Part shown: positions 1 through 12,926 of the stretch, one piece after another | How the letters are laid out: the number at the start of each line of letters is the position of its first letter | How positions within the stretch are numbered: the stretch's first letter is position 1 | Source of the DNA: Naegleria gruberi | Taxonomy: Eukaryota | Length of the DNA: 12,926 bases | Direction: 5' to 3' (one strand) | Assembly (NCBI GenBank): GCA_000004985.1 | Contig: GG738999.1 | Notes under the pieces: model-generated | The model's input: only the letters and a program-made list of their open reading frames with translations | Told to the model about the DNA's origin: nothing | Databases searched by the model: none | Made by a program: the position numbers and the translations under genes

Positions 1-1775
1 ATTTCCGAACAAACAGAGCTATTATATGAGGCAATTGAATAACAAGTAAAAAAATCTGTACAGTATTGACCAGACCATCCAGCATTACAGGAACAATTAT
101 CATAAGAAGTGCAGTTACCATATCCATTACACACATTTGGTTCGTTAAAGTGTATTTCGTTACAAGTTGGGAATTGACACTGATCACCAAAACCTGAACT
201 ACAAAGGCAACTGCCATCTTCTTGACATTGACCATGACCATTACAAACAGTCTCACTATTACTAGCAATTCCATAACAATAATTTGGATCTGTTAAATAA
301 GCAACGAATCCATTTGATGCTGTTGATACAGAAACATTCTTACCATCAAATTTTGGATTTAAGCCAAGGGTTCCAAAAATTGATATGAATTGATTATTAT
401 TATTCTTAACTCCATAAGAATAATCATCTTTTGAGCCTCCTTCTTTAATAGCCCAAACAGCATCTAAAGTAGTTCTTTTGAAAGCAGCAATCACAATATC
501 CCGTCCTCCAGTACTTGTCAACTTGGTGGAACCAATTTGAATTGTACCTGCAAAGTGACCAGAAACGATTATTTCTTGATCATTTTTGTTGGTATCTATT
601 CCTGTAAATACTACATCACCATCAATAACTAGATTTTTAGCTTCAGTAGGGGTGTTAGTACCATTCTTCAAGTAGAACATTAAAAATGATTTTCTTGATT
701 CAGTTGGTATGACCACAGAACCAACTATGTAGATTTCAACTTTTCCTTGAGCCGTAATTATTTTCATATCGTATACATCAACATCGTTTTGATAATTTGC
801 AATTGTAGTGGTGTGTTTTACTTTGAAAGGTTGGATATTGGTTGAGTTAATTTCATAATAACTAAAGAAGGGAGTTTGATGGATGGCCGATATTTGATCA
901 CCACCAAATGTAATTTCTCCATGAAAACTACCACATACCCAAAAGGAAGAAGCAGATGACTTGATAACCTTTTTTATGACTGAAGTTCCAGTCCCTCCTT
1001 GTTGTAGAACTTGCTTTTTTCCCAATGTCATTGAATCAAGAGAGACAGTGACAAGAGCAGCAAAAGGAGTCAAGTCACACTGAGTTGGAAGAGTCAACAC
1101 GGACTTATCTTCAAAGGTTAATATGTCAGGATTCTCCTGTGAGTTAGAGCATTCAGCGTAACCAACTACAATTAATGTATTTTCTATTTTCTGAATGTTG
1201 TCAGCTAAACTTGTTATACTACTCCATGCAACGAACTTGTCTGCGGAATGTACAACATAAACACCAATGGCTAGTTGTGCTGGATCTACGCATAATCTCA
1301 GAATGAATGATCCTGGTGGAAATGTTATCTTCTGTTCAAACTGAGTGATCTCTACCGAGCCTGCATTTCTAACAGTAACAAAAGGCCCGGTTACTGATGC
1401 AGTCGGTGAGAATATTTCTAATTGTTTTGATGAATAGATACATTCCTTTGCAATAATTTCATTTGGGGGACCATACCATGCATACCATACCAAACACACA
1501 AAGAAGGACGGATTCAACCCATCCAATTTGGTCTTTTCATTAAAGAAGATTGTTCCTGATTGAAAACCATTGAAAATACCCCAGTAACCGCTGTAACCAA
1601 AATAGTTTGGATAAGAATCAAACAAAGTCCTGAAATTATCTTCAGTTCCAACAGTAGATACAACTCCTATGACTGGCTTACTCGCCTCAATGCTGTGCTG
1701 AGTACATAAGCAATACCACAATACAATAATCATCAAGGATGCAATTGTTGCTGTCCTTCCCGGTACTATTGCCAT
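1..1775 (-). CDS. Partial CDS with a complete 5' end (ATG at 1775) and a 3' end beyond the left window edge. Secreted protein: signal peptide, then SBBP-like beta-propeller repeats, then C-terminal tenascin-type EGF-like cysteine repeats.
   Basis: Manual reverse-complement translation from ATG (complement of 1773-1775) down to position 1 gives 591 sense codons with no TAA, TAG or TGA. The nearest in-frame upstream stop is at 1869-1871 (tca on the + strand), so 1775 is the first ATG. A run of nine A sits directly 5' of the ATG on the coding strand. The N-terminus MAIVPGRTATIASLMIIVLWYCLCTQHSIEA has a basic n-region, a hydrophobic core and an AxA-like cleavage site. The central part has repeated V.G.F.G..FG and GGRDIVIAAFKR..LDAVWAIKEGGSKDDYSYGV motifs that resemble SBBP/beta-propeller repeats, and a KNNNNQF asparagine run. 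The last ~90 residues hold two full modules (CNGHGQCQEDGSCLCSSGFGDQC, CNGYGNCTSYDNCSCNAGWSGQYC) and the start of a third, matching the tenascin-type EGF spacing C-x-G-x-G-x-C-x4-C-x-C-x2-G-[FWY]-x-G-x2-C. GC is visibly higher than in the flanking repeat DNA. The ORF is probably missing from the supplied track because it has no stop inside the window. Confidence 0.85.
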   Translation of the reverse strand, partial: MAIVPGRTATIASLMIIVLWYCLCTQHSIEASKPVIGVVSTVGTEDNFRTLFDSYPNYFGYSGYWGIFNGFQSGTIFFNEKTKLDGLNPSFFVCLVWYAWYGPPNEIIAKECIYSSKQLEIFSPTASVTGPFVTVRNAGSVEITQFEQKITFPPGSFILRLCVDPAQLAIGVYVVHSADKFVAWSSITSLADNIQKIENTLIVVGYAECSNSQENPDILTFEDKSVLTLPTQCDLTPFAALVTVSLDSMTLGKKQVLQQGGTGTSVIKKVIKSSASSFWVCGSFHGEITFGGDQISAIHQTPFFSYYEINSTNIQPFKVKHTTTIANYQNDVDVYDMKIITAQGKVEIYIVGSVVIPTESRKSFLMFYLKNGTNTPTEAKNLVIDGDVVFTGIDTNKNDQEIIVSGHFAGTIQIGSTKLTSTGGRDIVIAAFKRTTLDAVWAIKEGGSKDDYSYGVKNNNNQFISIFGTLGLNPKFDGKNVSVSTASNGFVAYLTDPNYCYGIASNSETVCNGHGQCQEDGSCLCSSGFGDQCQFPTCNEIHFNEPNVCNGYGNCTSYDNCSCNAGWSGQYCTDFFTCYSIASYNSSVCSE

Positions 1776-1960: not shown

Positions 1961-2503
1961 TCGTGCGGATGTATTTGCAAAGAAAGCAATGTATGTCGTT
2001 GTGTTTGACGACATATACTTGGGGTTTGGTTATCGTTTCGTACTCATTGGATCTTTATTATTACTGAAATACATAATCAAAGATATACATCATTAAATAG
2101 GTAACAATCTCAGCTATCCAGTGGGCTATAGATTGTGTATAGTTTCTTATCTAATTATTGAGATAATCAGCAATTCCTCACTCAATATATTGCGATTTTA
2201 CTATTCCTAGGGAAAGGTAAAAGAATGATCAGAAATTGATCAATAAAAAATATATGTCATACTAGAGATGATTTGCTATCGATTGGTGTTTCAACTTTTG
2301 GATTTTACTAAGTAATTATTGAATTATCACCGATTAAATATTTAATTATTCTTGTTGGAAATCCTTGCTGGTAATTAAAGAGAGTTGATTCATTCTGTCT
2401 TGGTTGTATGGAGGTGAGACTTGCGGACGCTCTTAAATTGTCGGTTGGAAAAGTAACATACAAAAAAAATGTTGTGATGTCTCCTCTCTCTTCCTCATTC
2501 AAT

Positions 2504-2569
2504 CATCTCATCATCATCTCATCATCATATCATCATCATATCATCAGCATATCATCAGCATATCATCAG
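2504..2569. repeat. 11-bp tandem minisatellite, six units: catctcatcat x2, catatcatcat x1, catatcatcag x3.
   Basis: Direct reading gives perfect 11-nt phasing from 2504 to 2569, with two point variants separating three unit types. Confidence 0.9.
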
Positions 2570-2723
2570 GAGTTGTTTCATAATAATTTTAAAAATATAT
2601 ATTGATTGGAATTATTTGGAAGATGATGTTTCGGAATTGGAATAATATTTATTTGGAAGTTATTATAATGGTGGAGGTGTGGTGCCTTTGGCACTCACTT
2701 CCACCAAGTTGCAAAATTAATTG

Positions 2724-2773
2724 NNNNNNNNNNNNNNNNNNNNNNNNNNNNNNNNNNNNNNNNNNNNNNNNNN
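2724..2773. other. Assembly gap of 50 N.
   Basis: Run of n characters. Confidence 1.
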
Positions 2774-3097
2774 ACTGGGGAGAAAATATTTTACAAACGT
2801 AACCAAGTGCAATTACATTTCCCATTATGTGGGTTTGGTTCTACGAACCTCGGATACCTCTTACTCCAATCTCTTATTGATTTAAGATTTTGAAATTGTT
2901 TATTGTTGATACGAATCAGAAGCTTCTTATTGTGACAACACTTGATAGAAGAATGGGAAAGTGGTTGCATTAATTCAACATATTGAAAGTGAACAAGGTT
3001 CTCATCTCAAGATTTGGAACTCTTCTTCATGAAGAGGAGGTTATTGGGTGGTGACTAGAGAGAAACATTTCCTTGTAGCTTTTCTACTAGTAAATGA

Positions 3098-3260
3098 TTA
3101 ATTGACCAAGATGTTGACCTATAATATGGAAACACAATAAAATTCAATAATACTGATAAATACAGTAGTGAATATGAATGGTAATCATAAATCACTGAAA
3201 AAATCATGATTGGATCCATTTTGAGACTTTTGGAAGTCAACTTGGATGGCAATAGGGGAG
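3098..3260 (+). repeat. Dispersed repeat, copy 1 (family also at 12174-12340).
   Basis: taattgaccaagatgttgacctataatatggaaacac...ggatccattttgagacttttggaagtcaacttggatgg aligns collinearly with 12174-12340 (taattgaccaagatattgagccatactatggaaacac...ggatccacattcatactgtgggaagtcaacttgtgtg). Identity by eye is roughly 70%, with indels. Confidence 0.6.
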
Positions 3261-3885
3261 CTTTTGATGTGGTTAACACTTTTAAAGGGATCTGAATATT
3301 TTATTAGATAATATATGTCATCGTTTTACTTTATCACTAAATGTTGAATATCATGATGTTATGACCTATATTTCCAATTTGCGAAATGTTGCAATGTCAA
3401 TGTTTAATTGAAATATTGCCATCATACCAATAATTGATTATATATTATAAAACTGATATTATACACTATAATTGATATATATATGAATATATAATTGAAA
3501 GATTTGGTTTTAGACATTTATTAATGACGTGGGTAGTTCACTAAGGTAGTAACTTTGTCATGTGACATCTATCTAAGATGATATTGAAATCATTCCAAAA
3601 TTGATTCGATGAGAGTATTTGATGATTATAACTTGGTAGTATTGAATTGGTGTTGATTATTACCATTCATGACATGTAAGAATGTTACCTTTTTGTCAAT
3701 TAGGACAGTAGCTTGACAGATAGTCCAATTATATAGATATTGATTTGTATCACTCAAATACGTTATGAACATCAATTATAAGAGTATTTGTATGATATTC
3801 TATCTTGTTGAACATCTTGATATTGACTTGTCATATATCATGAGTAGTTAGTGACATGGTTAAATGGCATGAATACTGAATGATG

Positions 3886-3935
3886 NNNNNNNNNNNNNNN
3901 NNNNNNNNNNNNNNNNNNNNNNNNNNNNNNNNNNN
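3886..3935. other. Assembly gap of 50 N (a single n also at 4012).
   Basis: Run of n characters. The gap abuts the start of a repeat copy. Confidence 1.
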
Positions 3936-4486
3936 GAATTCTATATCATTATATATCATCTACATCATGTTGGTAAAGTTTCAATAGGTGGTCCTTTTTC
4001 AAGATTTCATCNCTTTTCATCAAAGTAGACCATGTGTGATTGAGGGAAGAAATCTCTAAATATGAAAGTTAAAATAAATTTGATATTCGATGTATACTCA
4101 TCAAATGGAACATTTTCATATCAGGATTTAATATGTTTTGATGAGAAACTCAAAAGTTATTGTTGACCTATTGTACCTCACAACTTCCCTTTTTACTTGA
4201 TACTTTTATACCTACAGACTTGAACTTTTGAAATTTCATGTGAACCTAATGATGAATACTGTTAATGATGATATAAACTATATAATCTCATTAAAGGATT
4301 TTGAAATTATCATTCTTCCTATGGTTTCATTTATGAAATTTTAATCTGACATTATTTACAAAGTTAATATTTTATAAATTGAAAAACTAAATATACCACG
4401 TTATTCTACTCATCATTTCCAATCGAATGATATAAAATTTAATGATATTTGAATAAGTTTATAATTTTGGGCTAGGATTAGAGTTG
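3936..4486 (+). repeat. Satellite-family block S2, copy 1 (paralog at 6566-7010). Its left end is hidden by the gap.
   Basis: gaattctatatca...ggtaaagtttcaataggtggtccttt.tcaagatttc...gaccatgtgtg.ttgagggaagaaatctctaaatatg...ctcattaaaggattttgaaattatcattcttc.tatggtttcatt...tctgacattatttacaaagttaatattttataaattgaaaaactaaatata...tttgggctagg is collinear with 6566-7010 at about 85-90% identity. The one exception is an internal ~85-bp segment that is inverted between the copies. Confidence 0.8.
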
Positions 4487-4794
4487 TTTTGATTTGTTAC
4501 TTCGGTGGCACCATGGTCTTTATGATCTAATATAGAGTCTTTAAGTGAATCTTGGGCTTTTGGAAAGGTTTTTCAGTAAAGTTTTAAAAAAAGTATATAC
4601 TTTCTATCTAGATATCGAGATTTGGTGTATTTGTTGTTTGCGTTGTTATTTGGAAAGTGGTAAAGATTTCGATATTCTTGGATTCTTAGATTCGGTTTCC
4701 ATTCGAAATTGATTGAAGATTCGCTAAGATTCGAATCTTTTTCCGCAAATAAGAATCTTTACCGGTATGAGATTGAATATTCAATTAGCATAGG

Positions 4795-4830
4795 TTTTTA
4801 GGTTTAGATTCTTAGGTTTTCGGACAAATA
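4795..4830 (+). repeat. Weak, degenerate telomere-like tract (ggtttttaggtttagattcttaggtttt).
   Basis: TTTAGG/GGTTT-like units, G-rich on the + strand. It is homologous to part of the stronger tract at 6991-7104, and a ~300-bp insertion of gattc-rich DNA (about 4500-4790) lies in between. Confidence 0.3.
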
Positions 4831-4964
4831 AATTTAACACTACAAGAAAGACAAGTAAGAAAGCTGCTCTATTTTGGCGTATAATTTTTAAAATTACTTT
4901 TCAAAGTAAATCGATTTTATCTACGTTAAAATATTGTGTTCAATTATTATATGGATTGGTTGCA

Positions 4965-5852
4965 ACTTTAAGATATTGATCTATGAATATGAAACTGTTC
5001 CAGATTGTTATCCACATAAAGAGGAGTGTATTCATATTTTACACTAATATGATATTTTGCAAAATGAATGGGATGGAGTGTGATCTTTGTGATGAAAGCT
5101 GACTTTTTGGAAGAATGATATTATTATCATACTGAATATAATTCTAACAGACTGTAAATGATACCATATAATTAATAAAGTGATTTAATATATATGGTAA
5201 AGTTATATAATGATTGAACCTACTTTCATTGAGATAGAGAGTTCACTAGGATATAAATACTGTTGACATTGAACATGAACCGATTGGTTGAATGATAGTA
5301 TCATGAATTGTTTCTAAACTTGTTTATATATACTTAAATGATGTCTAGATTGTGTGATATCAATTTTAGATTTATTGCACGTAAATTGAGTGATTTGGAG
5401 TATAATCTATGATATCATGTCAAAAGTCCATAATAAAGTGATAGAGTTGACAACAGGACATTTACTTAACCGATATTCATGAAATTGATACCATATACTA
5501 ATTAGAGTGTCTACATATCATGATTTTAATTTCAGTGAAAATGGAGTTGTTTCTATCTTTCAGATTTCCATCCATTCCATTGAATTACCACCATGTACTA
5601 TCTACCGGATGTATTTCTTGAAATGAAAATATATAATTTGAAGAAAGTCCACTTTATTTGAGATGTTAAACATGATAGTATCATTTATTTTGAGATTGGT
5701 AACTTTCCCTATAGTGTAATCCTTAATTGTATTAATTGACTAAAAGAGGTCAAGGAGAGATTTCAAAACATAAAATAAATGATATTTTCGAGATGTACTA
5801 TCGATTTCCAATCGATTGATATGTATTTTGTTGATTGAGGATGTGGTTCTCT
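4965..5852 (+). repeat. Higher-order unit S1, copy 1 (about three ~300-bp monomers; paralog at 10640-11526).
   Basis: Collinear alignment with 10640-11526 over ~890 bp at roughly 85% identity, for example gaaactgttccagattgtt / gaaactttctcagattgtt, agtgtctacata.catgat, gaagaaagtccactttatttgagatgt, gactaaaagaggtcaaggagagatttcaaaacataaaataaat, tccaatcgattgatatgtattttgttgattgaggatgt.gttctct. Internally it splits into ~300-bp subunits that each begin with a tt(t)ca(g/t)tga.a...gga(g/t)...ttc motif near 5227, 5533 and 5831. Confidence 0.8.
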
Positions 5853-6565
5853 ATATTCAAGATTTCCTCCTTATCCTCCCAAGTCAACCTTGATAAATCA
5901 CTCTTTACCTTACTGAATTATGGAATATTTACCAAAATGTCTAAAAACTGAATCATATACATTATTAGAGATATGGAACATGATTATATGATTTAATTTG
6001 AGATTGGTAACTTGGCTGATTCACTTGTTCATTTGAGGGAGAGTTTACCACCATTTAGATATTAGAGATATTTCCAATTAGAATGAATGATATTTTCGAT
6101 GACTACTCATCATTTGCAACATTTTCATATGTGTTTTATTGACTGGAGTGATGTTTTTGATATCTTGATTTTCACCTTTCAATCCTTAAAGTCAACCTTA
6201 AGATATCAACCTTTACCTTACTATATTGTCAAATTACATTTTAAAACTCTAAAATTGAATTCTATTACATTATTTGAGTTGTTAAACATGATGGAAGTGT
6301 TTCATAGAGAGGTCATTTTCCAGATTTTCATCCATGTCCATAGTTGACTAGATGGTATGAAAGGGATGAAATCTTGATTATGAAAGTTAAAATAAACTTG
6401 ATATTCAATCTCTACACATCTAATGGAGCATGTACATGTGTAATTTGCTGATTGAAGTGATGTTTTTGATTGACTTGATCTGACTTGTCTTTCCTTTCAG
6501 TCAACTTTGTAAAATCAACATTTACTTTCCTATGGTACCATTTCTGATTCTTATGATATGAAATT
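5853..6565 (+). repeat. Degenerate tandem monomers of the same ~300-bp satellite family, linking S1 copy 1 to S2 copy 2.
   Basis: Monomer-start motifs ttgattgaggatgtggttctct (5831), ttgactggagtgatgtttttgat (6129) and ttgctgattgaagtgatgtttttgat (6445) give spacings of 298 and 316 bp. Shared internal motifs include caagatttcc.cc, agtcaacctt, gaaattgaattctat, tttgag.tgttaaacatgat and gagattggtaactt. Confidence 0.55.
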
Positions 6566-7010
6566 GAATTCTATATCACTATAGATCATATAAATCATTT
6601 TGGTAAAGTTTCAATAGGTGGTCCTTTATCAAGATTTCCACCTTTTCATCATAGTTGACCATGTGTGGTTGAGGGAAGAAATCTCTAAATATGGATGTGA
6701 AAATAAACTTTCTCATCAAAGCATATTATATCCTGATATGAAAATGTTCCATTTGATGAGTAAACATCGAATATCAAATTTATTTTGACATTTATATTAA
6801 TGTTGTTAGGGAAGATATATACTATATAATCTCATTAAAGGATTTTGAAATTATCATTCTTCGTATGGTTTCATTTTATAGTTTTTAATCTGACATTATT
6901 TACAAAGTTAATATTTTATAAATTGAAAAACTAAATATAATACATTGTTCTACTCATCATTTACAATCGAATGATATAATATTCAATAATTTGGGCTAGG
7001 GTTTGAACTT
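6566..7010 (+). repeat. Satellite-family block S2, copy 2.
   Basis: See 3936-4486. A third partial match to the variable segment lies at 6378-6440. Confidence 0.8.
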
Positions 7011-7104
7011 TGAAACATTGGGTCTGGTATTTCAACTTTAGGTTCAAAGGTTTAGATTTTTAGGCTTGGGTTTTTAGGCTTTGGGTTGGTGGGGTTTGGG
7101 TGAG
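6991..7104 (+). repeat. Degenerate interstitial telomere-like tract (tagggttt, ggtttag, tttttaggc, gggtttttaggc, tttgggttggtggggtttgggtgag).
   Basis: Clustered G3T2-3 and TTTAGG-like units, G-rich on the + strand. The tract ends exactly where duplicated unit A begins. Confidence 0.5.
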
Positions 7105-8558
7105 TTTTATACACTTTCATACAATAGAGTGATATTGAAATGTACCCTTTGATATTTCTGGATGGGTAGCATGATTTAGTGATGATTCCGACAATAAAAA
7201 TCATGTATTGTTCATATAATTATCAAGATATTGTATAATTTATTAAATATAAAGTGGGTAATATTGAATATTCTTTGTAGGAGCGGAAGCACTTACTCTT
7301 GTCAGTTGGAGTCAGTACTGTATTAAGGTTCATTTAAGGAATCTTAAAAAAATACAATAACAACTCACCTACATCAATATCATCAAGTTATCATCTATAT
7401 TGAATATGGAGCAACAGCAAGAATGTATGGAGTTGATTCAACATGATTATTGGATTGGAGAGATGGCAAAAATATTGCTATCATTGTATTTGTCAAGTTG
7501 GAAGTACCCTCAGGATCATCAGCAAGGTTTCCTCTTCTCTTCTTGTTTGAGAGAGGTTTTTCATCAACAAGATGGTCATCTTCTTCATTGGAATGGTTGC
7601 TTTATTATTAAGGACTGAGAGTAGCGTTTTTAGATTTATTTTGATGAAATAAATCACAATTTATTACGCACAAAACATCAAGAACAACAAGAACAATGAT
7701 ACACCATCATCAATCAGTGAATTGGCCATCATCATTATTGTATAATTTCTTGGAATTTATTGGATTAATAGTAATTTATGGATTATTTGGTGGAATTACT
7801 ATCCTATTGAAGATGGAACATCAGCAACATCATCAAGATGATCTTCAATTTGGATAGTATTGTTTTCGGAGTGGTTTCACTCTTTTTGTGGGCTCTTTCA
7901 ACATACCATCATCCATCATCAGAATGGTCATCATCTTGTTGAGGGGAATATGTTCAACCTTGTTTTGGAAGGTAGAATATCGTACCACCACTCTACTCTC
8001 CTATTTTGATTAGATTGGTGGAGGTGCCACCACCTATTCATACTCTACATCAGTTGAATCTTCCCTCCATCATTTGGTGAGGGACCAACTTCTCCCTTCC
8101 ATATTGTTTAATAAATTATTGTTATTATCATATAATGATACAATTCTTGTTGTTGTTTGTTGTTAATTGTTGTTGTTAATAGTAACCGACAATTCCCCCT
8201 TAATAGTCATACAACCACTTGGTTATTCATATAAAGCATTTCTAGAAATTAAAAGCTATAGCACTGTTGGTTCAGTGGTTGTATGTTGGAGCGTCAATTA
8301 AGGGACTAGTGATCGATTCAAGGTGATTTTACTAACTTATTCATTTTTACCACCTTATTTTTTTAGATCTTCCTTAATACTTGACAATTTTAAAAGATAT
8401 TGATATCACATATACAATACTACATATAAACAACTCTATGTCAATTTCAATTGATTTAGTCAAGTATTCATTGAGAAAGAGTATGATCTGTGACATGATG
8501 TATTGACAACTTTACAAATATTGATTTAAACAATATGGTTATCTAGAAGAGTCTTATA
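7076..8558 (+). repeat. Duplicated ~1.5 kb unit, copy A (right end lost in the gap at 8559).
   Basis: About 99% identical to 9058-10553. The offset is 1982 bp at the left and grows to 1995 through a +3 (CTT) indel at 7537/9519, a +9 indel in the CAA run at 7690/9672, and a +1 indel at 7866/9848. Substitutions include gattagattgg vs gattggattgg and ggtgccaccacctattc vs ggtgtcaccacctgttc. Confidence 0.9.
8261..8332 (+). pseudogene. tRNA-like fragment (degenerate; possibly a tRNA-derived or SINE-like head) inside unit A.
   Basis: gcactgttggttcagtggttgtatg resembles the 5' acceptor and D-arm of eukaryotic tRNA-Gly(GCC), GCATTGGTGGTTCAGTGGTAGAAT. The downstream gatcgattcaagg resembles a T-loop (GGTTCGATTCC). 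No complementary 3' acceptor strand or convincing anticodon stem is present, so it is not an intact tRNA. Confidence 0.3.
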
Positions 8559-8608
8559 NNNNNNNNNNNNNNNNNNNNNNNNNNNNNNNNNNNNNNNNNN
8601 NNNNNNNN
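8559..8608. other. Assembly gap of 50 N.
   Basis: Run of n characters. It truncates copy A of the duplicated unit. Confidence 1.
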
Positions 8609-9054
8609 GACAGTCACATGGTTTTGGTGATTTTATCCACCTCTTTCTAGACAATTAAATTTAAAAATATCAAATGTTCTATTTATTATATAATAATTAT
8701 CTACATAATTAGTTTTGACTGAATCGGTCTAGAAAAAAAGTTATGTTTAAAAAACTATTTCAACTTTAATATTTATTTTCTCTTTCATTTTTAAGAATTT
8801 TTAATTTTTGATACCCTAGAAAAATTCTAATTTAAAAATACTATATTTCATATATTTTTTTAAAAAAATAAGGTTGGGTTTGGAAATACATACTCTTTGA
8901 TTATTCAATGAAAAACTACTTAACCATTCATTATGATATCTTACAAACTTGTTCTATACATTTAGGAGGAGCTACCCTGAAAGGATGACATCTTTAAATC
9001 AAATATTCATCGAACTATAAGGCACAGGTTTGAAAGACAAATATTGAAAGTTAG

Positions 9055-9087
9055 AAAAGGGTTTGGGTTGGTGGGGTTTGGGTGAGT
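9055..9087 (+). repeat. Telomere-like G-rich head of duplicated unit B (aaagggtttgggttggtggggtttgggtgag).
   Basis: GGGTTT, GGGTT and GGGGTTT units, G-rich on the + strand. The same sequence heads unit A. Confidence 0.55.
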
Positions 9088-10553
9088 TTTATACACTTTC
9101 ATACAATAGAGTGATATTGAAATGTACCCTTTGATATTTCTGGATGGGTAGCATGATTTAGTGATGATTCCGACAATAAAAATCATGTATTGTTCATATA
9201 ATTATCAAGATATTGTATAATTTATTAAATATAAAGTGGGTAATATTGAATATTCTTTGTAGGAGCGGAAGCACTTACTCTTGTCAGTTGGAGTCAGTAC
9301 TGTATTAAGGTTCATTTAAGGAATCTTAAAAAAATACAATAACAACTCACCTACATCAATATCATCAAGTTATCATCTATATTGAATATGGAGCAACAGC
9401 AAGAATGTATGGAGTTGATTCAACATGATTATTGGATTGGAGAGATGGCAAAAATATTGCTATCATTGTATTTGTCAAGTTGGAAGTACCCTCAGGATCA
9501 TCAGCAAGGTTTCCTCTTCTTCTCTTCTTGTTTGAGAGAGGTTTTTCATCAACAAGATGGTCATCTTCTTCATTGGAATGGTTGCTTTATTATTAAGGAC
9601 TGAGAGTAGCGTTTTTAGATTTATTTTGATGAAATAAATCACAATTTATTACGCACAAAACATCAAGAACAACAAGAACAACAACAATGCTGATACACCA
9701 TCATCAATCAGTGAATTGGCCATCATCATTATTGTATAATTTCTTGGAATTTATTGGATTAATAGTAATTTATGGATTATTTGGTGGAATTACTATCCTA
9801 TTGAAGATGGAACATCAGCAACATCATCAAGATGATCTTCAATTTGGATAGTATTGTTTTCAGGAGTGGTTTCACTCTTTTTGTGGGCTCTTTCAACATA
9901 CCATCATCCATCATCAGAATGGTCATCATCTTGTTGAGGGGAATATGTTCAACCTTGTTTTGGAAGGTAGAATATCGTACCACCACTCTACTCTCCTATT
10001 TTGATTGGATTGGTGGAGGTGTCACCACCTGTTCATACTCTACATCAGTTGAATCTTCCCTCCATCATTTGGTGAGGGACCAACTTCTCCCTTCCATATT
10101 GTTTAATAAATTATTGTTATTATCATATAATGATACAATTCTTGTTGTTGTTTGTTGTTAATTGTTGTTGTTAATAGTAACCGACAATTCCCCCTTAATA
10201 GTCATACAACCACTTGGTTATTCATATAAAGCATTTCTAGAAATTAAAAGCTATAGCACTGTTGGTTCAGTGGTTGTATGTTGGAGCGTCAATTAAGGGA
10301 CTAGTGATCGATTCAAGGTGATTTTACTAACTTATTCATTTTTACCACCTTATTTTTTTAGATCTTCCTTAATACTTGACAATTTTAAAAGATATTGATA
10401 TCACATATACAATACTACATATAAACAACTCTATGTCAATTTCAATTGATTTAGTCAAGTATTCATTGAGAAAGAGTATGATCTGTGACATGATGTATTG
10501 ACAACTTTACAAATATTGATTTAAACAATATGGTTATCTAGAAGAGTCTTATT
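9058..10553 (+). repeat. Duplicated ~1.5 kb unit, copy B.
   Basis: See copy A. Downstream of 10553 copy B runs into DNA unrelated to the sequence that follows A's gap (8609-9058), so the pair is not a simple head-to-tail tandem. Confidence 0.9.
10256..10327 (+). pseudogene. tRNA-like fragment, copy in unit B.
   Basis: Identical to 8261-8332 at an offset of 1995. Confidence 0.3.
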
Positions 10554-10639
10554 AATTTGTAATAAATATACTATATTTCAATTTTCAATTGTTGACTTGA
10601 TGTACTTAATTGACTTGTCTATTCTAAGGTTACTTAGTT

Positions 10640-11526
10640 GACTTGAAGATACTGAGCCATGAATTTGAAACTTTCTCAGATTGTTCTCCTCATCAAGAGG
10701 AGTGTATTCGTATTTGATACTAGTATGATATTTTGTAAACTGACTGAGATGGAGTGTAATCTCTTTTTTGAAATGTGATATTTTGAAAGATTGTTATTAT
10801 TATCATATTGAATTCAATTCTAAAACTATGAAATTGATACCAGATGTATAATAGTGTGACTAAACGTATTGGGTAAAGTTACAGAATGAATGGAATAACT
10901 TTCACTGAGATGGAGTGTTCACTAGGATATATATAATGTTGATATTGAACATTTACTGATTAATTTTATGAAAATAGTTTGAAATGTTTCTTAACTATTG
11001 TAGATGTATTTAATTGATATATAGACTATGTGGTATCAATTCTAGACTTGTTATATGTAAAATGAGTGATTTGGAGTATAATCTATGATATCATGTCAAA
11101 TATCTATAGTAAATTGATAGAGTTGACACCTCGACATCTACTGAACCAATATTTATGAAATTGATACCACATACTAATTAGAGTGTCTACATACCATGAT
11201 ATCAATTTCAGTGAAATTGGAGTTGTTTCTGGACCCTTCAGATTTCCATTCTCCTGACAAATCAGCATGTACTATCTACTGGATGTATTTCTTGAAATGA
11301 AAACATATAATTTGAAGAAAGTCCACTTTATTTGAGATGTAGGACACGATATTATCATTTATTATGAGATTGGTAACTTTTCCTATAGTGTCATCCTTAA
11401 TTGTCTTAATTGACTAAAAGAGGTCAAGGAGAGATTTCAAAACATAAAATAAATTATATTTTCGAGATTTACTATTGATTTCCAATCGATTGATATGTAT
11501 TTTGTTGATTGAGGATGTTGTTCTCT
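10640..11526 (+). repeat. Higher-order unit S1, copy 2.
   Basis: See 4965-5852. After ttgattgaggatgttgttctct the homology with copy 1 stops abruptly, and a G-rich telomere-like tract follows. Confidence 0.8.
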
Positions 11527-11564
11527 GGGGTTGGGGGTTGGGGTTGGGTTTGGGTTTGGGTATG
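11527..11564 (+). repeat. Interstitial telomere-like tract: ggggtt gggggtt ggggtt gggttt gggttt gggtatgg.
   Basis: Five to six consecutive G3-5T2-3 units are read directly from the sequence. The tract sits exactly at the breakpoint where S1 copy 2 diverges from S1 copy 1 (5852/11526). Confidence 0.7.
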
Positions 11565-12173
11565 GCGAAAACCTATTCTCATAAAATGAACCACTAATAT
11601 TGGCTATCCAGTTCTTATATATGTATTACTATATAAAATAATCTATCTATTCTGTAATACAGGTGAAAAAACTCCCCGTAGTTATTGAGATAATCAAAAA
11701 TGGTCAACTCAAAAATTCCTAGTATATCTATTATCTCTGCGACGAGAACGTTCCGGGTTATGATTCACTCAAATATCAATCTATATGAGTATTGGAAGAA
11801 ATGATAGAAAATACTAATTTTTTTAATTCGCCGTTCCCGAGATAATTGAGTCCTAAAGTGACCCCATGGGTTGAACCAACCTTGGGTCTGACAAAGTTGA
11901 AAATTTCAAAGTTGGGCCAGAATGAAACTTTTGATATATTGTAGATATATTTATGAATAGATGATATTATGAATTAATCTAGTTGAATCGGTGTATTTAA
12001 TAAATTACAACATGTCTTAAAATAAACTTTTCAACATTTATTGTACTATTATATGAATGTTATTAGAATCATCACCAATCTCATATATATGATGTATAAT
12101 GATGATATCTACCTTATAGAATTGTTGGAAATATAATATATGATATCCTTAGTATACTGTACTCATTCTACCT

Positions 12174-12340
12174 TAATTGACCAAGATATTGAGCCATACT
12201 ATGGAAACACTATACCAATTTATTAAACTTGTTAATATTGTAGTAAATATCAATTATAATCATATATAATTGAAATAATCATTATTGGATCCACATTCAT
12301 ACTGTGGGAAGTCAACTTGTGTGAAATTGACAATACTGGT
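12174..12340 (+). repeat. Dispersed repeat, copy 2 (see 3098-3260).
   Basis: Collinear similarity to 3098-3260. Confidence 0.6.
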
Positions 12341-12464
12341 AATTGAAGGATGAATATCTTACATGACTTAATTCCACTCATTCATACATGTCTAACTATC
12401 ATGGTTTATAATATCTAATTGAAATAATTGAAATTAATCATGTACATAAGGATATAATCAATTA

Positions 12465-12926
12465 GGGTGAATCCTTCCAATCCTGCTGTGGGAATGTAAT
12501 GGAATACTGAAGTCAATGGAAACATCACCAATTCATATGAAATTGATACAGAATACATAATAATATGTTAGAAATCGATTGGTGTTGAAAGAATTCAAAT
12601 CTGTTCAGTAGTTGTTGAGATCTGTATAAACCTACGGTACTATGGGACGAATGTAGGGCTGAGATGACCATATATGAAAGTATCGCTTCACTCAATAAAT
12701 TATATATCAAAATGTTGATGACGATGAGTACAGTTGATTGATATAGTTTTTGGTGACTGGAAGTGTCTAGAAGTATCACTATGTTGTCAATTGACCATTC
12801 CTTAATGAGTTGCCTTGGAACTTTTCCAATCATTGTGAAATTGATACATAATATATTATTTGATATTTGCAATGTATTGGAGTTGAAATAATTCAAATCC
12901 ACTCAGTAGAAATGGAGATATCATCA
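12465..12926 (+). repeat. Tandem array of ~300-350 bp satellite-like monomers (one full unit plus a partial second, truncated by the window end).
   Basis: ccttccaatc...catatgaaattgatacagaatacataataatatgttagaaatcgattggtgttgaaagaattcaaatctgttcagtagttgttgagatc (12473-12625) recurs as cttttccaatcattgtgaaattgatacataatatattatttgatatttgcaatgtattggagttgaaataattcaaatccactcagtagaaatggagatatc (12821-12922). The atgaaattgatac(c)a core also occurs at 5473, 10829 and 11157 inside S1 monomers. Confidence 0.6.

Follow-up and report, generated by a model that had tools for sequence, protein, structure and literature searches.

The G/T-rich tract at position 11526 of a small Naegleria gruberi scaffold (GenBank contig GG738999.1) is best explained, with moderate confidence, as an interstitial relic of an N. 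gruberi telomere within a patchwork built by recurrent truncation, capping and addition of DNA. At this position a copy of a satellite block is truncated, the sequence that takes over has telomere-type composition and orientation, and tracts of the same kind recur at the module boundaries of the scaffold. The window that we analysed, 12,926 nucleotides long, is the whole of this small scaffold of an amoeboflagellate. It has 50-N gaps at 2724-2773, 3886-3935 and 8559-8608, and position 4012 is an isolated N.

The satellite block, S1, is present twice on the plus strand. Copy 1 (4965-5852) is intact at the position homologous to the break in copy 2, and copy 2 (10641-11526) is truncated at 11526. 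Aligned pairwise, the two copies are 83.8% identical across 890 columns and about 90% identical across the final 490 nt, and a weaker similarity extends to 4882 in copy 1 and 10553 in copy 2. The 22-mers which the earlier note had quoted as the ends of the two copies, TTGATTGAGGATGTGGTTCTCT and TTGATTGAGGATGTTGTTCTCT, are indeed found at 5831-5852 and 11505-11526, respectively. Neither has a further match in the window at three or fewer mismatches, and by chance none is expected. Past the divergence point, which follows ...GTTCTCT, copy 1 continues into ATATTCAAGATTTCC and copy 2 into a pure G/T run. The collinearity of the copies ends at one nucleotide, 11526 in copy 2, and the alignment thus confirms the claim that they run together for about 890 bp and part at a single position.

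The part that is absent after copy 2 follows copy 1 as a satellite continuation (5853-6710, plus strand) made of monomers of about 308 bp, which are spaced 308-309 bp apart (families D11, D12 and D14). Adjacent monomers are about 62-66% identical and the 890-bp blocks are 84-93% identical, which makes "satellite higher-order unit" a fair label for S1. An alignment of 5521-6408 with 5817-6719 gives 64.6% identity. The window also contains a 90-nt inverted repeat (4059-4148 and 6709-6798), the arms of which are 93% complementary and 2.56 kb apart; it indicates that a piece of satellite is locally inverted at 6709-6798.

A further copy was found in contig VFQN01031297.1 (2,627 bp, hereafter L001), the sole contig obtained from a metagenome scan with a 30-nt S1 motif. 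DNA pattern scans of genome contigs (two patterns) and of viral contigs gave no match. The non-coding repeats of L001 are 92-95% identical to those of the window. L001 aligns with copy 2 over 11035-11526 at 92.3% identity, with the match ending exactly at 11526, and it stays collinear with the copy 1 side over 5359-6439. In the three-way alignment, copy 1 and L001 both read ATATTCAAGATTTCCTCCT where copy 2 turns to G/T, and copy 2 is 93.1% identical to L001 vs. 90.0% to copy 1. Because copy 1 and the independent L001 both read through the break, copy 2 is the truncated copy and the intact state is ancestral. At the sequence level the break is real, and it is a truncation of copy 2 rather than an insertion into copy 1.

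The tract that replaces the satellite (11526-11565, plus strand) is pure G/T over 11526-11561 (TGGGGTTGGGGGTTGGGGTTGGGTTTGGGTTTGGGT) and then continues as degenerate ATGG. It reads T GGGG TT GGGGG TT GGGG TT GGG TTT GGG TTT GGG T. Tandem Repeats Finder reports a period of 6 at 11528-11565, with 6.3 copies, 87% matches and the consensus GGGTTT. The length of telomere-type repeat buried after copy 2 is 36-39 nt, and this tract is the purest telomere-like tract of the window. The motif GGGTTTGGGTTTGGG, allowing three or fewer mismatches, has 8 matches in place of the 0.14 expected, a number reached in none of 200 shuffles; the G/T tract is therefore not a chance occurrence. Neither terminal inverted repeats nor a target-site duplication could be recognized convincingly in the flanks of the tract.

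Short G/T-rich simple repeats occur in AT-rich genomes, and the tract could in principle be an ordinary microsatellite grown by slippage and unconnected with telomeres. We regard this as extremely unlikely, because the tract starts exactly at the point where homology breaks, matches the candidate telomere unit, and is accompanied at other block boundaries by six relatives on the same strand, where 0.2 are expected.

For N. gruberi, the candidate telomere repeat is TTTGGG. This proposal comes from an in-silico survey of the position and orientation of repeats in the assembly, and its authors emphasize the need for experiments (Fulneckova et al. 2013, PMC3622300). The tract matches this in-silico candidate, and half of its units are TTGGGG-like. 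The earlier reading had depended on the telomere repeat of the species being related to G3-5T2-3, and the published in-silico candidate is so related. The searchable literature on Naegleria telomeres, subtelomeres and telomere-associated elements yielded nothing besides this motif. The two kinds of unit are ordered within the tract, of which the outer (right) portion is exact TTTGGG in two copies and the inner half is TTGGGG-like. Real telomeres usually carry variant repeats proximally. By analogy, the order in the tract would be the usual arrangement of a real telomere. Alternatively, the irregular units could reflect an enzyme which makes irregular repeats.

In mixing GGGGTT and GGGTTT the tract resembles telomeres of the Paramecium/Tetrahymena type (TTGGGG, or TTGGGG mixed with TTTGGG); Paramecium telomeres mix these same two units. 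The resemblance to ciliates is one of motif only. A ciliate origin, which the G4T2/G3T3 motif had suggested, was ruled out because the window contains a 591-codon reading frame which is open in the standard code, reads CAA and CAG as Gln, and matches an N. gruberi protein.

The direction of the tract and the sequence before it also bear on its origin. The G-rich strand points 5' to 3' away from the retained satellite, as that of a cap must. G and T make up 80% of the 30 nt that precede 11526, which is the 98th percentile of the window. In yeast, G/T-rich seeds favor de novo telomere addition. The stretch before 11526 is a seed of this type and is compatible with the action of telomerase. At the other telomere-like junctions in the scaffold the upstream seeds are not G/T-rich.

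The tract is now internal, with satellite to its left and 1.36 kb of other DNA to its right in one gap-free contig. It might accordingly be asked whether the site was ever a chromosome end. A double-strand break inside a chromosome could have been filled by telomerase, or from its RNA template, and closed with rearrangement or filler DNA. According to work cited in PMC6410037, short interstitial telomere repeats (ITSs) form in this way in mammals, and the tract is short. The flanks of the tract, however, are not collinear with the intact site, which disfavors an insertion by break repair: nothing of the S1 continuation (5853 onward) is present in the 1.36 kb to the right, where the satellite does not resume in its expected phase, so that only a longer insertion would be possible. 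In addition, recurrent tracts of one orientation at module boundaries fit terminal events better. We consider an internal repair scar quite unlikely.

The small size and repeat-rich nature of the scaffold, with its three 50-N gaps, raise another concern, namely that the junction is a chimera of assembly or cloning in which a read end containing satellite and telomere became fused with some unrelated repeat locus. An assembler could go astray among the paralogous repeats, which are 84-99% identical. A 36-nt tract, however, is too short to serve as a read-joining overlap. The junction lies within a gap-free contig of 4.3 kb (8609-12926), and an analogous junction is present in the separately assembled L001, where satellite, telomere tract and another unit follow each other. 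These two facts make a chimera very unlikely.

The tract at 11526 is not the only one of its kind. At least six additional telomere-like G/T tracts are present in the scaffold, all of them G-rich on the plus strand. The motif GGGTTTGG occurs 8 times at 6 sites, always on the plus strand, where 0.21 occurrences are expected; L001 contains two more, in the same relative orientation as those of the window. The tract at 2019-2031 (TTGGGGTTTGGTT) forms the junction between unique gene-upstream DNA and a repeat unit, C. Homology to L001 begins at 2022, within this tract, and to the left of it the window has gene-upstream DNA where L001 has satellite and telomere-like DNA. A second tract lies at 2828-2840 (TGTGGGTTTGGTT), and a weak one at 4465-4476 (TTTTGGGCTAGG) stands at the end of block 3936-4469, the homology of which to 6566-7012 and to L001 stops at 4469. 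A long degenerate tract (6990-7102, 76% G+T) contains two block boundaries, with L001 homology ending at 7059 and a unit termed B starting at 7076. The remaining tracts are at 8872-8883 (GGTTGGGTTTGG) and at 9059-9084 (GGGTTTGGGTTGGTGGGGTTTGGGTG), the latter at the start of the second copy of unit B.

Ends of the duplicated blocks coincide with these tracts. Block ends at 2022, 4469, 7059, 7076, 9058 and 11526, about 6 of the 14 that are not at gaps, fall inside telomere-like tracts, although such tracts cover less than 2% of the window. At 11526 the boundary is the point where the homology of copy 2 to both copy 1 and L001 ends. Some tracts are copies of one another, since 9059-9084 matches 7077-7102 and 4465-4476 matches 6990-7000. 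The number of independent events is thus about five and not seven, and the common orientation of the tracts is due in part to duplication of whole modules.

These observations change how the earlier reading should be understood. It had proposed de novo telomere addition at a break, followed by later internalization. The truncation is upheld by copy 1 and L001, and telomere-type capping by the match to TTTGGG, the orientation and the 80% G+T seed. What does not hold is the view of 11526 as a singular event at one notable breakpoint: about seven tracts of the same orientation mark module boundaries in the scaffold, and the tract at 11526 fits better as a single case of a process that recurs and is probably subtelomeric. 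The description of the breakpoint as ancient also lacks support, because no tract in the window is purer and the satellite copy that precedes it is 93% identical to L001.

Two further observations were made around these tracts. Degenerate motifs, TAGGTTTT in four copies and TTTTTAGGC(T)TGGG in two, including TTAGGC, occur at 4791-4820 and 7020-7090, where they adjoin telomere-like tracts or sit within them; they could derive from older telomere sequence that has since decayed, or they could be simple repeats of no relation to it. The break at 11526 and the junction between the D6 unit and telomere-like sequence at 6990 appeared by eye to share a monomer phase, about 20 nt apart. We do not take this similarity as evidence because its estimated chance probability is about 13%.

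The scaffold has a single gene (1-1775, minus strand), which is cut by the scaffold end and is predicted to encode a secreted protein with EGF-like domains. Its 591 codons are 100% identical to the NCBI entry "predicted protein, partial [Naegleria gruberi]". The product has a signal-peptide-like N-terminus and C-terminal EGF-type domains, and it is apparently an orphan, as the only match in a collection of 5.8 billion proteins is to itself. Between the gene and the first telomere-like tract there are 245 nt. The gene end of the scaffold is its unique and presumably centromere-side end and, given the 245-nt spacing, no other unique gene would stand between this one and the patchwork of repeats.

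Rightward of about 1,800 the scaffold is AT-rich repeat DNA throughout. Between 1800 and 12926 we found no open reading frame longer than 125 amino acids, no protein homologues, no Pfam match, no tRNA and no Rfam family. Likewise, 1000 amino acids of concatenated stop-to-stop frames from the junction, unit E, unit B and the satellite gave no protein match in the 5.8-billion-sequence collection. Sequences resembling tRNA boxes A and B were seen by eye at 8250-8330 and 10245-10325 and at 100-170 of L001 (GGTTCAGTGGTT ... GATCGATTC). The idea of a SINE to which they gave rise was dropped when ARAGORN and Rfam found no tRNA. Across 2001-12000 the GC skew is positive and the AT skew mostly negative in the non-coding part, and the plus strand is 53.8% G+T in the non-coding part vs. 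47.7% across the gene. The whole patchwork thus has the strand bias of the telomere tracts.

Several repeat units can be delimited in this DNA. Unit B is non-coding, 1.5 kb long and present in two plus-strand copies which are 98.9% identical and about 1.98 kb apart. Each copy begins within a telomere-like tract; copy 1 (7076-8557) ends at the N gap, and copy 2 (9058-10552) is followed by S1 copy 2. Unit C (2022-2723, plus strand) is 95.2% identical to positions 1513-2198 of the reverse complement of L001 and is broken by the gap at 2724-2773. It contains a (ATCATATCATC)n/ATC-rich microsatellite of different length in the window (2502-2568) and in L001 (about 590-640). In window orientation, L001 runs from S1 through the ~308-bp satellite, the D6 unit, a telomere-like tract, unit C and a region of about 360 nt to S1 again; the ~360-nt region is 69% identical to the 3' part of unit B. 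On the minus strand of L001, a 30-nt GC-rich segment (1121-1150, AACCTGGCGCCGGACGATTTTGTCCAAAAG) is flanked by two telomere-like tracts, GGTTTGGGTTTGGTT on one side and, on the other, the GGGTTTGG with which unit C begins. This segment has no counterpart in the window, and it looks like filler DNA at a junction.

The distal DNA beyond the tract (11566-12926, plus strand) is non-coding. It comprises about 600 nt without a clear relative, a 147-nt repeat (12173-12319) that matches 3098-3244 at 80%, and, from about 12400 and after about 850 nt of other DNA (E), a ~298-bp variant of the satellite in the same orientation. The earlier note had called the DNA past the tract unrelated. This is correct in relation to the expected satellite continuation, but the DNA belongs to the repeat families of the scaffold, as the 147-nt repeat and the ~298-bp variant show. 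A homology of the distal DNA to unit C was rejected as too weak, since it consisted of 15 shared nucleotides (TTATTGAGATAATCA) and a stretch of 55 nt that matches at 73% (E = 0.001).

From 9059 the order of the window is tract, B, truncated S1, tract (11527), E and the ~298-bp satellite variant. The region is thus a series of modules, each consisting of a tract, a variable element and a run of satellite that breaks off at a different point in each module before the following tract. The tract at 11526 is in the usual slot of such a module, and its peculiarity is that the preceding satellite run is only 890 bp long. The module pattern and the uniform orientation of the G strand suggest a subtelomeric scaffold whose telomere lies on the right.

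A telomeric relic at 11526 would then have formed as follows. The plus strand would point to the chromosome end. A chromosome end, or a broken end, would have arisen inside the ~308-bp satellite at 11526. We infer that telomerase capped it with T2-3G3-5 repeats, with canonical TTTGGG outside and TTGGGG-like units inside. The short cap would have been buried when further DNA joined beyond it, leaving the 36-39 nt that are seen today. Several rounds of such truncation, capping and distal addition would have given a non-coding patchwork of tract, unit B, C or E, and satellite modules. For the distal addition we favor two possible routes: a short telomere may have been joined end to end with another fragment, or break-induced replication may have started in the tract of another module.

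The DNA to the right of the tracts bears on this choice. It differs at each independent junction (B, C, E, 2841 onward, 8884 onward, and AACCTGGCGCC in L001), and unit C alone repeats its tract-adjoining end, with GGGTTTGG followed by TTATCG in both the window and L001. Such differing right-hand sequences fit end joining or break-induced replication, and they fit less well with a single family of elements with a fixed end.

Terminal retroelement arrays are known from Athena of bdelloid rotifers (endonuclease-deficient Penelope-like elements) and from HeT-A/TART of Drosophila. Like the scaffold, these arrays consist of stacked and variably truncated units with short telomere tracts of one orientation between them. 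The modules (B, C or E plus satellite) could be non-autonomous elements of this sort, read from the minus strand and carrying a (CCCAAA)n 3' tail. They would attach to telomeres by reverse transcription primed at the G overhang, would be variably truncated at the 5' end, and would be capped again by telomerase. By the logic of Athena and HeT-A, the tract at 11527 would cap a 5'-truncated module and would also have primed the module that follows. The region 9058-11565, with tract, B, right-truncated S1 and tract, is what is expected of a 5'-truncated minus-strand copy; the left end of unit C is constant in its two contexts, and the tracts all share one orientation. On the other hand, the repeats contain no reverse transcriptase, no other open reading frame and no Pfam match, and no ribozyme or other RNA family was detected. 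The sequences that adjoin the tracts on the right all differ, with no shared 3' end, and the searchable literature reports no telomere-associated Penelope-like element for Naegleria. The modules therefore differ from Athena and HeT-A/TART in having neither reverse transcriptase nor coding capacity and no conserved tract-adjoining end, and we hold the element explanation to be unlikely.

The proposal that 11526 is a buried telomere relic has consequences for the study of this organism. With only the in-silico motif TTTGGG offered for Naegleria telomeres in the searchable literature, the scaffold provides junctions, module boundaries and a ~308-bp satellite that is a candidate for telomere-adjacent DNA. 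These can be used as probes or PCR anchors for the true chromosome ends, the telomere motif and the turnover of subtelomeres between strains. Nanopore data for N. gruberi exist as R9 and R10 runs (PMC12695648). A wider view, which we consider doubtful, is that Naegleria chromosome ends are dynamic stacks of non-coding modules grown onto short telomeres, perhaps through undescribed telomere-primed, non-autonomous heterolobosean elements, and that the telomerase is perhaps natively irregular (T2-3G3-5), as in Paramecium. If this is true, the scaffold would offer a first look, at the level of sequence, at the biology of heterolobosean telomeres.

The junction at 11526 can be compared with chromosome healing. 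De novo telomere addition is known from the repeated-addition sites of yeast and from healed terminal deletions in humans and Plasmodium. Here too there is an abrupt, one-nucleotide switch to telomere repeats where intact homologues continue, with the G strand directed away from the retained DNA and 80% G/T in the upstream 30 nt. Unlike those cases, the putatively healed end is no longer terminal, 6 units survive, and telomerase would be the probable rather than the demonstrated agent.

Yeast and human subtelomeres are known to carry a class of ITSs at the boundaries between blocks (PMC6410037). In human subtelomeres, at yeast X/Y' junctions and as TG1-3 between Y' elements, degenerate telomere islands likewise lie at block borders and are oriented toward the telomere (PMC6410037). 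The copies of unit B (98.9%), each starting with a telomere tract, are similar to tandem Y' elements of yeast. The tract at 11526 is supported as a member of this class by its position, by the block boundary and by its motif, that of the candidate repeat; its subtelomeric location is probable from the module pattern. It differs from the yeast and human examples in that the blocks are 0.2-2.5 kb long and wholly non-coding, with no helicase frame of the Y' type, in that the truncated partner is a ~308-bp satellite of a heterolobosean host, and in that the terminal location is putative. The phenomenon itself is ordinary: telomere repeats are well known to lie buried between subtelomeric blocks in yeast, in humans and in many other eukaryotes. 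What is new is an example from a lineage with unstudied chromosome ends; as a genome scar it is of a known kind and involves no new mechanism.
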